NCBI GenBank assembly: GCA_977017645.1
Contig: OZ360221.1
Coordinates: forward strand, 205,592,001-205,656,000
DNA: 64,000 bases
Direction: 5' to 3'
Source: Torpedo marmorata
Taxonomy: Eukaryota
Shown in pieces: positions 4,711 through 63,780 of the stretch. The first letter of the stretch is position 1; every line of letters starts with the position of its first letter. The notes under the pieces are model-generated. The model was not told the origin of the DNA. It ran no database searches and saw only the letters and a program-made list of their open reading frames with translations. The position numbers and the translations under genes are program-made.

Positions 4711-4718
4711 ACCTAGAC

Positions 4719-5212
4719 CAGGTGTCCCCAAACTTTTTAGACCATCAACCCCTTCATGGAATCCTTGATCCCTCATAGACCACCAGGCATGTACAAAAAT
4801 AAATAATAATCTAGAAAGATACATAAGACCCCCAGGCATGTACAAAAAAAATAATAATAAAAGTAATTAAGTAGATTTTCGTTACATACTGGAAAATAAA
4901 GCTAAAGCTTTACAACAAGCAAGCAAGTGATCACACTAACAGTAAAAAAAAAACACCTTTGCTTCTGGCCGGGAAGATGCCAAATGGAGCTGGGTCCAAG
5001 TCTTCAGCATCGGCTACAGCAACTTCATTCTCAGCATCGGGTGCGGTGCCGTCCACATCGAAGGGGTCGCCTCGGGCTCCCGTGCAGGAGCGGGGACCTC
5101 GGGCTCTACAATCGACCCCCCCGGCGTTTATCAACCCCCTGGCATTTTTTGACCCCTTGGATAGTCCCATCAACCCCCCAGGGGATGATATTGACCACTT
5201 TGGAGACCCCTA
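4719..5212. mobile_element. Non-autonomous hAT (Charlie-like) MITE
   Basis: Termini CAGGTGTCCCCAAAC ... CTTTGGAGACCCCTA. Flanking 8-mers acctagac (4711-4718) and acctcgat (5213-5220) are 6/8 identical, consistent with an 8-bp TSD. Confidence 0.8.
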
Positions 5213-5224
5213 ACCTCGATCCAT

Positions 5225-6440
5225 ATAACCATTTAACACTTACAGCACAGAAACAGGCCAGTTCGGCCCTTCTAGTCCATGCCGAACACCTTATCCCACC
5301 TAGTCCCACTGACCCACACCCGGCCCATAACCCTCCACACCTTTCTCGTCCATATACCTATCCAACTTTTCCTTAAACATTAAAATTGAACCTGCATCTA
5401 CCACTTCGGCCGCAAGCTCGTTCCACCCTCCTACCACCCTCTGAGTGAAGAAATTCCCCCTCATGTTTCCTCTAAACTTTTCTCCCTTCAATCTCAATCC
5501 ATGCCCTCTTGTTTGAATCTTCCCCACTCTCAAATTGAAAAAGCCTATCCACGTTGACTCTCTGTCCCCTTCATAATTTTAAATACCTCTATCAAAACAC
5601 CCCTCAACTTTCTACGCTCCAGGGAATAAAGTCCCAGCCTGCTCAACCTTTCCCTGTAACTCAAACCCAGAAACCCAGGCAACATTCTTGTAAATCTCCT
5701 CTGCACTCTCTCTATTCTATTTATATCCTTCCTATAATTCAGCGACCAAAACTGCACACAATATTCCAAATTTGGCCTAACCAATGCCTTATACAACTTC
5801 AACATGACATCCCAACTCCTATATTCAATACTCTGATTTATGAAGGCCAACATACCAAATGCTTTCTTCACCACCCTATCTACGTGTGACTCAACTTTCA
5901 GCGAATTATGTACCAGAATTCCTAAATCTCTGTTCTTCTGCACTCCTCAATTGTCTTCCATTTAACACGTATGATCTATGCTGATTAGTCCTACCAAAAT
6001 GTAGCACCTCACATTTATCAGTATTAAACTCCATCTGCCATGTTTCCGCCCACTCTTCTAACTGTCCTATATCCCCCTGCAAGCTTTGATATCCCTCTTC
6101 ACTGTCCACAACACCACCAATCTTCGTATCATCTGCATACTTACTAATCCAATTTATCACCCTATCATCTAGATCATTAATATATATGACAAACAACAAT
6201 GGACCCAGTACCGATCCCTGAGGCACTCCACTAGTCACCGGCCTCCATTTTGACAAACAATTTTCCACCACTACTCTCTGGCATCTCTTATCCAACCATT
6301 GTTGAATCCATTTCACTACTTCGTTAATACCTAATGCTTGAACCTTCCTAACTAGCCTCTTATGCGGAACCTTGTCAAATGCCTTACTAAAGTCCACAGC
6401 CTTCCCCTCGTCAACCTTCTTAGTAACCTCATCGAAAAAC
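5225..6440 (-). mobile_element. 5'-truncated CR1/HER1-like LINE (RT and C-terminus, frameshifted)
   Basis: ORFs DFSKAFDKVPH...SGVPQGSVLGPLLF...KYADD, LVRPNLEYCVQFWS and TRGHGLRL...FFTQRVV. Confidence 0.97.
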
Positions 6441-10721: not shown

Positions 10722-12115
10722 CATTTTCAACCTCTCATTGCAGCAGTCAGAGGTTCCCACCTGCTTCAAAAGGGCATCAATCATCCCGGTACCCAAGAAG
10801 AGTAGTGTGGGCTGCCTCAACGACTACCGCCCAGTAGCACTAACTTCTACTGTGATGAAATGCTTTGAGAGGCTGGTCATGGCCAGAATTAACACGTGCC
10901 TAAGCAAAGATCTGGACCCACTGCAATTCGCTTATCATCACAATCGCTCCACAGCAGATGCAATATCGCTGGCTCTCCACTCAGCTCTGGATCACTTCGA
11001 AAACAGCAATTCATACATACGGCTGCTCTTCATCGACAACAGCTCGGCCTTCAATACCATTATTCCCTCAGTGCTGGTCAAGAAGCTACAAACTCTAGGC
11101 CTCTGAACCCCACTCTGCAACTGGATCCTTGACTTTCTCATCGGAAGACCACAGTCAGTACGAATTGGAAACAACGTCTCCTCCTCACTGATTATCAACA
11201 CAGGCGCACCCCAAGGATGCGTGCTTAGTCCACTGCTCTACTCGTTATACACCCATGACTGTGTGGCCAGGCACAATTCCAATGCCATCTACAAGTTTGC
11301 CGATGACACCACATTGTCAGCAGAATCACAAACGGCAATGAGGAAGCGTACAGGAGGGAGATAGATCAGCTAATTGAATGGTGTAACGACAACAACCTTG
11401 AGCTCAACGTCAGCAAAACCAAGGAGATGATTGTGGACTTCAAGAGGAAGTCAGGGGAACACGACCCAGTCATCATCGAGGGCTCAGTAGTGGAGAGGGA
11501 CAAGAACTTCAAATTCCTGGGTGTCAACATCTCCGAGGATCTGTCCTGGAGCCTCCACGTTGATGCAATCACAAAGAAGGCTCGCCAGCGGCTATACTTT
11601 GAGGTGTCTGAGGAGATTCGGTATGTCACCAAAGACTCTCGTAAACTTCTACAGGTGTACCGTGGAGAGCATTCTGGCTGGTTGCATCACTGCCTGGTTT
11701 GGAGGCGCCAACTCTCAGGACAAGAGTAAACTCCAGAGGGTTGTTAACTCGGCCTGTGACATCACAGGCACCAAACTTCACTCCATCGAGGACATCTACA
11801 TGAGGCGGTGTCTTAAAAAAGCAGCCTCTATCCTCAAAGACCCCCACCATCCAGGCCATGCCCTCTTCACTCTGCTTCCATCGGGAAAAAGGTACAGGAG
11901 CCTAAAGTCGAGCACTCAACGGCACAAGGACAGCTTCTTCCCCGTTGCCATCAGATTCCTGAATAATCAATGAACCAAAGACACTGCCTTACTTTTCGTG
12001 CACTATTATTTATAATTTTTTATAGTAATGTCGCAAGATGGTTATAATGTGAATGTTAATTGCACTACGATGCTGCCGCAAAACACCAAATTTCATGACA
12101 ATAAATTCTGATTCA
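10722..12115 (+). mobile_element. 5'-truncated Rex1/Babar-like LINE, relatively young
   Basis: [12 protein letters not shown]...[38 protein letters not shown] (~11292-11306) and C-terminal LRRFGMS...DSFFPVAIRFLN. One stop and a couple of frameshifts; tail aataaattctgattc. Confidence 0.96.
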
Positions 12116-51385: not shown

Positions 51386-53031
51386 AATTTTTTTATTTTT
51401 TTTTAATGAAAATTCCTCTGCAGGGTACTGCAGCACAGGATCCATGCCTACCACTTCTGTTCAATACTGAGAGGTGCCACCTTGCCTCTTCTGGGCAATA
51501 ATTATCTTTGCATATCATTAGCTATATAGCATTTAGAACTCCTTTCGATTGCAAAAACATTCCAGATAAATATCTTTCGCAATGAACATTTTGGCTTGCA
51601 TCTCTGCAGCCCAGCATATATTACCACTGGCTAACTGGTAACAATTCTGGCAATCCACACACATTTATGGCACCAAACCCAAAAATTAGTCAACTGACCA
51701 GCTCGCTGAAGGTGAATGATGAGGGGTGGGGGGTCAATGAAAACTATAACCCAGCTGTGCTGGTATCCAGATCAGGATCTAATGGGTCGAAAATAGTTTA
51801 ATAGAAAAGGCTTCCATTGGGTAATTAAGATGATACATGCTTGATGGGAGTTGGATGACAGACAATCCACCATTCTGCTGAAATGAATTCTGAGAGAGTC
51901 ATTGGCAAGGTTCGCATTCAGAAAGTGACATCTTGGACAGGTCCAATCTATTTGATGCTCTGTGTTACAGCTGGATTTACACATTTCCTCCAAATATTAA
52001 ATGTGTCATAGCCAATCCTTTGTAGCTGGCACATGGCCCCACCTATGAGGACCAGTTACACTACAGATGGCATTAAAGTGCCCACGCTAAAGGAGGAAAA
52101 AGGCCAAAAGGTTTTTATGCATGCTTGCCATCTTTCAACCCATTACAGAAAGACATACAAACTTCAGCCTGACAAGGATCAGGTTTAGTTGCAACTACTT
52201 TCATCCTAGCTCCCATGCACTCTGCCAAATCGTAAATGGGCACCACTCATCCCCGAGGAGCAAGCGCAAAGCAAGATTTCCAAGGCTACAGGATCATATC
52301 CAATATTGACTGAGGCAAAAGAATAGATGCAGAAGAAAAGGGTCTTGGGGAGAGGAAATAAAAGTTGTATTACTCCTTTTAGAATATTTACCCCTGCTTC
52401 CCAACCTACTCAAGAAATTAAGTTCAGCACAAATGAAAAGTAGTCACTAATAAGATTGTCAGGATACCAAACTATTTGCAGGACTTAGTATAAACACAAA
52501 GGCTGTAAAATTCAAGCCACAAAATACACCACATGTTATGTGAAGCTAATGAGTACCTCTCTCCATGCATGCATTGCAAGAGAAAAACAACCAAACATAA
52601 CCCACAGCTTGAAAATATTAGAGTGATAAAATGATTGATGTGAAGCAAATACAAAACAGGGACAATAAAATCAAGATGTTCAGCCTGTGCAAGTTCAGGC
52701 AGTTTTAATCAATCTTCTGCTCTCACCTGCAGCCGAGAGAATGCATCATTACATTATTCAATCTAAAATACAAACAAAATAAGTCCATTACAATGCAAGT
52801 GGCTCTGGCTGGGAAAAGCAAAGCTGTGATACCATCAGGGTGCTTGTACTGCAGTCCAATGTGTGCTGCACTAATTGATCTCAGGCAGGACAGCTACAGT
52901 TGCCAACGGACTCAATGTCCCAGGATAGGAAATGAGAAGAAATTGAACGCAGAATCCCTATTCTTTAATAGCTATCCAGACATTTCTACTGAAGCCCAGC
53001 CTGTGCTGACATGAAGACAGGATCATAAATA

Positions 53032-53795
53032 CCGTATATTTCGGCGTATAAGTCGACTCGCGGTTAAGTCAACCCCCCTTTTTCAGCCTAATTTTAATGG
53101 TTTTATTGTATATCCAGCGTATAAGTCGACCCCCAATTTTCAGGCTGTCCGGGCCTCCCAGCAACAACGCAAAATTTGTTACAACACCCCAATCGCCAAG
53201 TAACAAAGCTGTAAATTAAGCAAGTAAAAAAATAAAATAAAAAACCTTTGCTTCTGGCTGGGAAGATGCCAAACGGAGCTGGGTCCAAGTCTTCAGCTGC
53301 AGCCAGAGTCGGCGACGGGCGACTCCATTCTCCACATCGGGTGCGGTGCTGTCCTCATTGAAGAATTCGCCTCGCTGCCCAAGTGTGCTCGGTGCAGGAA
53401 CCACGGCTACGTGTCGGCTCCCGGGCAGGAGCGGCGACCTCGTTCTCCCGGGCAGGAGCGGCGACCTCGTTCTCCCGGGCAGGAGCGGCGACCTCAGGCT
53501 CTACAATTGTAGAATATCTGGGTGGTTTATGGCGGCGCCCGGCGGTGGGGAGGTGTCAGGGAGCGGCGGCAGGGAGGTGCTTCCAGCGTCGACCTATACG
53601 CCGAATCGGGTTTTCAAGGGTCAACTTATACGCCGAATCGGGTTTTCAAGGGTCAACTTATACGCCGAATCGGCGTGGAGTAGTTTTTGAGCTGATTTTA
53701 AGGTCTCAAAAGTATATCTGGCGTATAAGTCGACCCCCATTATTTGAGAGATTTTTGAGGGTTTCAAGACTCGACTTATACGCCGAAATATACGG
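53032..53795. mobile_element. Tc1/mariner superfamily (Tc2/pogo-like) MITE, young
   Basis: Perfect 25-bp TIR CCGTATATTTCGGCGTATAAGTCGA with TA on both sides (53030-31, 53796-97). Internal copies of gcgtataagtcgacccc, a 27-bp x3 repeat (53418-53495) and a 32-bp repeat (53595-53672). Confidence 0.95.
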
Positions 53796-57689: not shown

Positions 57690-58113
57690 TGGGAAGAGAT
57701 TGTATACACTGGAATTTAGAAGGATGAGAGGGGATCTGATTGAAACATATGATTATTAAGGGATTGGACACACTAGAGGAAGGAAGCATGTTCCCGATGT
57801 TGGGAGAGTCAAAAACCAGAGGCCACAGTTTAAGAATAAGGGGTAGGCCATTTAGAACGGAGTTGAGAAAAAACTTTTTCACCCAGAGAGTTGTGGATCT
57901 GTGGAATGCTCTGCCTCAGAAGGCAGTGGAGGCCAATTCTCTGGATGCTTTCAAGAAAGAGTTAGATAGAGCTCTTAAAGATAGTGGAGTCAAGGGATAA
58001 TGGGGAGAAGGCAGGAACGGGGTACTGATAGCGGATGATCAGCCATGTTCACAGTGAATGGCGGTGCTGGCTCAAAGGGCCGAATGGTCTACTCCTGCAC
58101 CTATTGTCCATTG
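57690..58113 (+). mobile_element. CR1-like 3' end (young family)
   Basis: YTLEFRRMRGDLIETY / IIKGLD...TRGHSLRIRG...FFTQRVVDLWNALP; tail ctactcctgcacctattg. Confidence 0.96.
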
Positions 58114-61494: not shown

Positions 61495-63100
61495 AACAAT
61501 AAACAATAGGTGCAGGAGTAGGCCATTCGGCCCTTAGAGCCAGCACCGCCCTTCACTGTGATCATGGCTGATCATCCACTATCAGTACCCCGTTCCTGCC
61601 TTCTCCCCATATCCCTTGACTCCGCTATCTTTAAGAGCTCTATCTAACTCTTTCTTGAAAGCATCCAGAGAATTAATTGGCCTCCACTGCCTTCTGAGGC
61701 AGAGCATTCCACAGATCCACAACTCTCTGGGTGAAAAGGTTTTTCCTCAACTCCGTTCTAAATGGCCTACCCCTTATTCTTAAACTGTGGCCTCTGGTTC
61801 TTGACTCTCCCAACATCGGGAACATGTTTCCTTCCTCTAGTGTGTCCAATCTCTTAATAATCATATGTTTCAATCAGATCCCCTCTCATCCTTCTAAATT
61901 CCAGTGTATACAAGCCCAATCGCTCCAATCTTTCAACATATGACAGTCCCGCCATCCCAAGAATCAGCCTCGTGAACCTACGCTGCATTCCCTCAATAGC
62001 AAGAATGTCCTTCCTCAAACCTGGAGACCAAAACTGCACACAATACTCCAGGTGTGGTCTCACCAGGGCCCTGTACAATTGCAGAAGGACCTCCCTGCTC
62101 CTATACTCAACTCCCCTTGTTATGAAGGCCAACATGCCATTAGCTTTCTTCACTGCCTGCTGTACCGGCATGCTTACATTCATTGACTGATGAACAAGGA
62201 CACCTAGATCTTGTTGTACTTCCCCTTTTCCTAACTTGACACCATTCAGATAGTCATCTGCCTCCCTGTTCTTGCCACCAAAGTGGATAACCTCACATTT
62301 ATCAACATTAAACTGCATCTGCCATGCATCTTCCCACTCACATCCTCCTCACATTTCACACAGCCACCCAGCTTCCTGTCATCTGCAAATTTGCTAATAT
62401 TACTTTTAATCCCTTCATCTAAATCATTAATGTATATTGTAAACAGCTGCGGTCCCAGCACCGAGCCTTGTGGTACCCCACTAGTCACTGCCTGCCATTC
62501 TGAAAGGGACCTGTTTATCCCTACTCTTTGTTTCCTATCTGCCAACCAATTTTCTGTCCATGTCAGTACCCTACCCCCAATACCATGTGCTCTAATTTTG
62601 CCCACTAATCTCCTATGTGGGACCTTATCAAAGGCTTTCTGAAAGTCCAGGTACACTACATCAACTGGCTCTCCCTTGTCCATTTTCCTAGTTACATCCT
62701 CAAAAAGCATGATTTCCCCTTTGTAAATCCATGCTGACTCGGACCGATCCTGTTACTGCTATCCAAATGTGCCGGTATTTCATCTTTTATAATTGACTCC
62801 AGCATCTTCCCCACTACTGATGTCAGGCTAACTGGTCTATAATTCCGTGTTTTCTCTCTCCCTCCTTTCTTAAAAAGTGGGATAACATTAGCTACCCTCC
62901 AATCCGCAGGAACTGATCCTGAATCTATAGAACATTGGAAAATGATTACCAATGCGTCCACGATTTCTGGAGCCACCTCCTTAAGTACCCTGGGATGCAG
63001 ACCATCAGGCCCTGGGGATTTATCAGCCATCAGTCTACCCATTTTCTGCCTAATGTGAATTTCCTTCAGTTCCTCCGTTACCCAAGGTCCTCTGTCCACT
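61495..63100 (-). mobile_element. 5'-truncated CR1-like LINE (young family, several small deletions)
   Basis: KSPGPDGLHPRVLKE...NYRPVSLTSVVGK, YLDFQKAFDKVPH...GVPQGSVLGP...KFADD and LVRPHLEYCVQFWSP; same 3' end as 57690-58113. Confidence 0.97.
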
Positions 63101-63292: not shown

Positions 63293-63780
63293 GTAAACTT
63301 CTACTGGTGTACCGTGGAGAGCATTCTGGCTGGTTGCATCACTGCCTGGTATGGTGGCGCCAACTCCCAGGACAAGAGTAAACTCCAGAAGGTTGTTAAC
63401 TCGGCCTGTGACATCACAGGCACCAAACTTCACTCCACCGAGGACATCTACATGAGGCGGTGTCTTAAAAAAGCAGCCTCTATCCTCAAAGACCCCCACC
63501 ACCCAGGCCATGCCCTCTTCACTCTGCTTCCATCGGGGAAAAGGTACAGGAGCCTAAAGACGAGCACTCAACGGCACAGGGACAGCTTCTTCCCCGCTGC
63601 CATCAGATTCCTGAATAATCAATGAACCAAAGACACTGCCTTACTTTTCGTGCACTATTGTTTATAATTTTTTATAGTAATATCGTTAGAATGGTTAATA
63701 TGAATGTTAATTGCACTATGATGCTGCCGCAAAACACCGAATTTCATGACTTGTTCATGACAATAAATTCTGATTCTGAT
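63293..63780 (+). mobile_element. Rex1/Babar-like 3' end, same young family as 10722-12115
   Basis: Near-identical to 11641-12115 (VNFY.CTVESILAGCITAW...AIRFLNNQ); (tctgat)n tail. Confidence 0.96.

Follow-up and report, generated by a model that had tools for sequence, protein, structure and literature searches.

How does the same GC-rich sequence come to lie inside two DNA transposons with unrelated shells? The question is raised by two MITEs in a window of 64,000 nucleotides of the Torpedo marmorata genome (a 6.2 Gb assembly). The one at 4719-5212 is bounded by imperfect TIRs of 16 bp and by an 8-bp TSD whose copies agree at six of eight positions, and the one at 53032-53795 has TIRs and a TA on both sides; a first-pass annotation had likewise described an 8-bp TSD for the former and TIRs with a TA TSD for the latter. 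That annotation had reported 52 of 54 identical nucleotides between 4955-5008 and 53244-53297, both mismatches being CpG transitions, and recomputation returned the same values. The collinear similarity which it followed on to 5112/53507 was recovered by BLASTN within the window (4945-5074 versus 53234-53374, E=5e-30; 5070-5112 versus 53465-53507, E=9e-8). The core match holds, but the length given for the sharing does not, the block being longer (53146-53508 in the second element and ~310 bp in the form here termed Passer-C). This shared segment, hereafter the cargo, is a GC-rich segment of ~310 bp with an internal 26/27-nt VNTR. The first element belongs to a deletion subfamily and retains only 4917-5112 of it, with one VNTR unit at 5070-5096. 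Comparison of the sequences makes it probable that both window elements are non-autonomous derivatives, one of a hAT Buster and the other of a pogo Passer, and that the cargo reached a full-length Buster from a Passer-C MITE, copied by a template switch that microhomology guided during break repair.

Table 1. Features of the two cargo-bearing window elements, and loci of the third hAT shell.
Positions or loci	Strand	Feature	Remarks
4711..4718	+	Left 8-bp TSD of Buster MITE	TA at positions 4-5
4719..4875	-	Buster 3' end, TIR 4719-4734	93% to 3' end of full-length L091
4873..4909	-	37-bp piece of Buster region upstream of transposase ORF	89% to L091 element positions 786-822
4917..5112	+	Shared cargo, left ~120 bp missing	91% to cargo in L091
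5113..5212	-	Buster 5' subterminal repeats and TIR	94% to L091 5' end
5213..5220	+	Right TSD	6/8 identical to left TSD
53030..53145	+	TA target and left arm of Passer-A MITE, TIR from 53032	91% over 111 bp to full-length L094
53146..53508	+	Shared cargo, Passer-A form	Contains 41-bp insert 53375-53415 and three 27-nt VNTR units 53418-53498
53509..53587	+	Second GC-rich repeat block	In Passer MITEs and Tigger-like derivative; absent from Buster and L094
53588..53797	+	Right arm of Passer MITE, subterminal repeats, TIR end 53795, TA	94% over 220 bp to L094
L164, L165, L167, L169, L170, L172, L177, L178, L180, L181, L185, L187		Third hAT shell	

The Buster family with and without cargo

The reference for the first shell is L091, a decayed full-length hAT of ~3.1 kb plus a LINE insert, with a TSD identical at 8/8 positions; its cargo follows the 5' subterminal repeats and precedes the transposase ORF. 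The transposase-carrying Busters L091-L093 contain the cargo. Direct Pfam scans of the Buster transposase gave no match; the transposase fragment of L092 matched 199 proteins at E<=1e-10, named ZBED5/ZBED8/SCAND3-like. Judged from this transposase and from a TSD with TA at positions 4-5, the shell family is hAT Buster. The Buster/Mar elements described in the available part of PMC3517528 likewise have 8-bp TSDs with TA at positions 4-5, short TIRs, parents of <4 kb and MITEs formed by internal deletion; unlike those, the parent in this genome comes both as a form that has a Passer-derived insert close to its 5' end and as a form that lacks it. The best matches of the L092 fragment (L092:1632-2243) are Trichinella proteins at 79% identity, against ~46-52% for the vertebrate matches listed, a hint that this Buster was transferred horizontally.

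The window copy is of a subfamily, also represented by L067, L069 and L134, which is marked by the 37-bp piece and has the order 3' end, 37-bp piece, right part of the cargo, 5' end. Within 4719..4875 it has a private 49-nt tandem duplication (4777-4802 / 4826-4851). A retroposon-like repeat (window 5221-5600), with partial matches elsewhere in the window, starts directly after its right TSD.

The Buster 5' subterminal motif has 247 matches genome-wide, and 30 loci with it comprise seven cargo-free and eight cargo-bearing Busters, 12 copies with a third hAT shell, two with another shell and one truncated copy. The native, cargo-free Buster junction has 71 exact matches genome-wide. All 30 fetched loci with this junction have a 39-bp AT-rich segment where the cargo would be; 29 of them align to L091 on both flanks of the cargo interval, and the transposase ORF was reached in nine, within the 1.5 kb examined per locus. 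In cargo-bearing Busters ~310 bp stand in the place of this 39-bp native segment. The terminal base is A in 32 of 33 cargo-bearing Busters and G in 26 of 27 cargo-free ones. Since the G of the latter keeps the TIRs symmetric, the A represents the derived state, which is also that of the 5' terminal base of the window copy. By comparison of the two forms, the cargo is judged foreign to Buster. One cargo-free Buster MITE, L176, holds GC-rich filler of another kind, which suggests that this Buster site underwent a further, independent capture.

The Passer family and its cargo-free relatives

The arms of the second window element match L094, which is full-length (1,843 bp) but decayed, with a frameshifted ORF; fragments of it matched the Pfam families BrkDBD (E=1e-12), HTH_Tnp_Tc5 (E=3e-9) and DDE_1 (E=8e-9). 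The element is classified as a pogo Passer from these domains, the TA TSD, the short TIR and arms 91-94% identical to L094. The first-pass annotation had called it 'Tc2-like', a label that we take as equivalent to Passer; its description as a TA-flanked TIR MITE stood, and the domains of L094 now place the family as pogo Passer. The available part of Gao et al. (2020, PMC7386202) gives for Passer the same order of BrkDBD, HTH_Tnp_Tc5 and DDE_1 as seen in L094, and keeps pogo as a superfamily apart from Tc1/mariner. Unlike the Passer elements described there, the MITEs found here carry at least ~440 bp of non-parental filler.

The cargo was absent from the interior of full-length L094-type Passer elements at all 25 loci, the two matches obtained being neighbouring MITEs. 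Because of this absence the cargo is considered foreign to this Passer parent as well. The Passer MITEs divide into forms C, B and A, and the window copy is a Passer-A, in which the cargo is shortened on its left and contains the 41-bp insert; this insert (53375-53415) is specific to the A and B forms. Motifs of the Passer-C arms have 11 (left) and 43 (right) exact matches genome-wide, and cargo motifs lie upstream at 27 of 30 Passer-C right-arm loci. The arms of Passer-C (L107, L191-L199) are only 74-81% identical to L094, against 91-94% for Passer-A, which implies that arms changed within the Passer lineage and the cargo persisted. L320 and L133 look intermediate. The search for a full-length Passer-C parent found none, and L285 is the only complete cargo-free Passer-C copy found; it could be either the ancestral form or a deletion product.

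Copy number and target sites

A 25-mer of the cargo has 2,731 exact matches genome-wide, a lower bound on the number of cargo copies, and a control has 0. The shells were identified in an unbiased, position-sampled set of 90 of the 100 listed places of the 25-mer, in which the pairs L064/L065 and L081/L082 are non-independent: Passer accounts for 70, hAT-Buster for 13 and a Tigger-like MITE for seven. By similarity search, a Buster end is present at 28 of the 30 best-matching loci for the hAT core and a Passer TIR at all 30 for the Tc2 core. The target sites are typical of each family. Buster TSDs are identical at six or more of eight positions in 31 of 33 two-ended copies, 30 of these with TA at positions 4-5, and TA is found on both sides in 64 of 70 two-ended Passer A/B copies and 20 of 22 Passer-C copies. 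Such distinct, family-typical TSDs indicate multiple rounds of transposition, a feature also of Pack-TIRs. The first-pass annotation had regarded its proposal as open to refutation if either shell-plus-cargo combination existed only once; both are multicopy, with TSDs of their own.

These data also bear on the idea that the cargo is an independent mobile repeat inserted into each shell. Compared with L285, Passer-C has a 6-nt direct repeat around the cargo, which would speak for such an insertion. However, none of the 90 sampled matches lies outside a Passer, Buster or Tigger-like shell, the cargo boundaries vary between shells, the cargo replaces Buster sequence without duplication, and it has no TIR, poly-A tail or Rfam match. 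In Buster and in the Tigger-like MITE it is also without termini of its own and without a TSD, the latter being what the first-pass annotation had named as a sign of such a repeat. This reading is largely refuted and deserves hardly any credence.

Direction of transfer and junctions

Passer-C carries the longest block in common with Buster, and over 297 nt the cargo consensuses of Passer-C and of long Busters differ only at an A-run and one gap column. In which direction did this block travel? Full-length Passer-A-type elements lack the cargo (0/25) and the transposase-bearing Busters L091-L093 contain it, so that transfer from Buster to Passer was favoured at first, until the cargo-free Busters reversed this view. 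The cargo is, moreover, foreign to Passer also, as expected if both families had drawn independently on a third donor such as a host locus or another repeat. Yet ~20 nt of Passer subterminal arm are part of the Buster insert, and the limits of the block common to Passer-C and Buster fall on the edges of the Buster insertion at either end, which is expected with a Passer donor and would be a double coincidence with a Buster donor. The left end of the cargo was found in another context at one match, a truncated Passer copy. An entry into Buster first, or a third donor, is on this evidence improbable, and the direction was very probably from Passer-C to Buster.

At the Buster junctions, donor and recipient share microhomologies of 3 nt (AAG) and 4 nt (CTTT), and a simple model puts the joint chance of at least 3 and at least 4 nt at ~0.001-0.003. 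Buster and Passer-C disagree at two of the first five captured bases, which argues against a clean switch. A nested insertion followed by two deletions could yield the same end product, and this constitutes the main rival: a Passer-C MITE would have inserted at a TA in the 39-bp Buster segment and lost both ends by two microhomology deletions, the direction being the same. The 39-bp segment holds several TA sites, microhomology deletions are common in these families, and nested chimeras are real in this genome (the 12 of 30 loci with the third hAT shell, and the two with another shell). The route nevertheless requires two independent deletions, each crossing a Passer end, and no intermediate with a Passer TIR occurs among the six long cargo-bearing Busters or the fetched cargo-free copies; the captures by the Tigger-like MITE and by L013, a second hAT, retain no donor terminus either. 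Nesting is regarded as unlikely, if the most serious of the alternatives, and the template switch as the probable route.

The non-CpG divergences of the subfamilies overlap (1.4-4.0%) and do not order the events, the sampling being biased. Two of the 32 rows binned as Passer-C (L073, L100) were truncated A-type copies, and 13 rows were unclassified. Too few sites distinguish the subfamily consensuses for a core-versus-shell tree, and diagnostic indels took its place. We infer that the two window copies are cousins through Passer-C and not donor and recipient of each other.

A probable gap-repair template switch

Under the preferred template-switch model, a break in a Buster, or one left after its excision, would have been filled from an ectopic Passer-C copy, the repair switching template to Passer-C and returning to Buster 39 bp further on. 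The resulting chimera would have kept its transposase gene, stayed mobile and amplified, and its internal deletion would have given rise to Buster MITEs, including the copy in the window. In parallel, Passer-C would have produced the B and A forms, among them the Passer copy of the window. Cross-mobilisation would not be required, as each shell may be moved by its own transposase. The proposal of the first-pass annotation that an internal module moved between superfamilies is supported, both combinations being multicopy and the junctions fitting the proposed template-switch capture. It had offered Pack-type capture or a template switch as the means: the latter fits the junctions, but strict Pack-type capture does not apply, the immediate donor being a Passer-C MITE and not a host gene.

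Cargo in further shells

A third cargo shell is TA-flanked at its ends and is presumably Tigger-like; the C-terminal fragment of its parent, the only part scanned, gave no Pfam match. Its 3' motif has 306 matches, with cargo at seven of 30 loci, and most of the other loci are transposase-type or other deletions. Passer-C and this MITE agree in the A-run variant and both contain the second GC block, and L270, a Passer-C copy, has the same internal junction; Passer-C would be the likely donor. A second hAT family has 396 motif matches and cargo at one of 30 loci (L013, the same as L235; TSD 7/8). L013 has a 16-nt deletion in common with Buster MITE-A, and a Buster MITE would be its likely donor, once. 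Little or no microhomology is found at the right junction of the Tigger-like case and the left junction of L013. The second hAT family (L230-L259) also contains several different internal fillers and a short GC repeat of its own.

The third hAT shell has 8-bp TSDs, is taken by us to be Tip100-like, and carries the VNTR together with the whole Buster 5' end including its terminus, at 12 of the 30 Buster subterminal loci (Table 1). This structure points to an origin by nested insertion and one-sided deletion. L163 and L166 show a Buster end plus VNTR in another TA-type shell, L163 with tandem units and with telomere-like repeats upstream.

The Tigger-like, second-hAT and third-hAT cases all have one of their breakpoints within a GC-rich tandem repeat. 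The recurrence of capture seems best accounted for by high template copy number combined with GC-rich tandem repeats acting as switch points. It could also be imagined that the cargo is a transposase-free selfish module whose VNTRs provoke switching or raise the mobility of the shell, and which outlives its host families by moving to new vehicles. The cargo-bearing share is 23 of 30 for Buster ends (nested copies included) and seven of 30 for the Tigger-like ends, and the second hAT case is a singleton; these shares give no consistent sign of an advantage from the cargo. Such a module is a rather doubtful proposition. The first-pass image of a passenger using more than one vehicle is apt in that several shells share the cargo, but an active property need not be invoked, copy number and a switch-prone VNTR being enough. 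The 26/27-nt VNTR grows to dozens of units in several shells. In L013, L020, L022, L193, L198 and L199 both GC-rich repeats within the MITE expand to minisatellite arrays of up to ~1 kb.

Ultimate source of the cargo

A host-gene or TIR-less donor was sought with an exclusion pattern at the left end of the cargo, which gave one match, L320, a 5'-truncated Passer; the pattern was exact and partly degenerate and would miss a diverged donor. No single-copy TIR-less cargo locus was found in this search or among the 90 sampled matches. A coding origin finds no support in nine open-frame translations, which have no Pfam match at E<=1, or in one cargo frame, for which no homologue was found among longer proteins (weak evidence). 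On the minus strand a donor/acceptor pair resembling splice sites was weighed and dropped, the donor GT being absent from Passer-C. As to expression, no RNA run was found among the listed sequencing runs that hold the sampled words.

Relation to known systems and to other organisms

Chimeric non-autonomous elements are familiar to repeat curators. A serial cross-superfamily relay was not found reported in the part of the literature covered, which excludes Repbase and Dfam, and a prior description is possible. The nearest parallels lie in animal Pack-TIRs, for which the available part of Tan et al. (2021, PMC8277862) presents gap-filling and FoSTeST models, a definition that demands sequence of non-TE origin and a unique parental locus, mostly single-copy occurrence, and, in 67.6% of cases, microhomology at one breakpoint or both (median 2 bp). 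The likeness consists in a few hundred bp of foreign sequence taking the place of a short internal stretch, microhomology at the breakpoints (3 and 4 nt in Buster) and later amplification. Unlike the Pack-TIRs described there, the immediate donor here is the MITE of another superfamily, one recipient kept its transposase gene, capture is serial and copies number thousands. The strict definition does not fit, as the donor is a MITE and no TIR-less parent was found. The proposed relay would on this analysis be gap-filling as in Pack-TIRs, but with a transposon as the immediate donor and across superfamilies.

In the coral CMITEs (Wang et al. 2010, PMC2872659, available in part), the internal region is likewise better conserved than the TIRs and of unknown origin. 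Every CMITE family retains a piggyBac-type terminal motif, and a single transposase class may serve them all, whereas pogo (TA) and hAT (8-bp) shells are involved here, with cargo-free parents that reveal direction and junctions. MITEs of the DTC84 type, as far as the accessible text of PMC3879986 describes them, also have an internal tandem array of variable length; unlike that array, the one found here seeds expansions in several unrelated shells.

Since the pre-capture forms are still in the genome, direction and junctions can be read directly, which makes this a well-resolved vertebrate case of sequence exchange between DNA-transposon superfamilies. These families also form a natural set of cases on which gap-repair and nesting models for the origin of MITEs can be compared. 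It also suggests that a transposase-bearing element can absorb MITE-derived filler and remain mobile, and that one CpG-rich minisatellite seed has been carried to thousands of sites by several vehicles. Annotation based on homology would merge or mislabel these families.

At least one-fifth of the sampled words are present in each of eleven listed sequencing runs from five coded organisms, and four more runs hold small shares. Four runs yield contigs over the cargo. The Buster-cargo junction is crossed, with >31 nt to either side, by one contig of organism C; one of organism E just reaches that length, and Passer-type loose ends are found in organisms A, C and D. The capture is probably common to related species, although one sampled organism may be Torpedo marmorata itself.

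Elsewhere in the window, a tandem array with a 37/74-nt period occupies 317-1126, and two young repeat pairs are present (11641-12114 and 63293-63776, 93% identical in direct orientation; 57700-58113 and 61497-61913, 96% identical and inverted).
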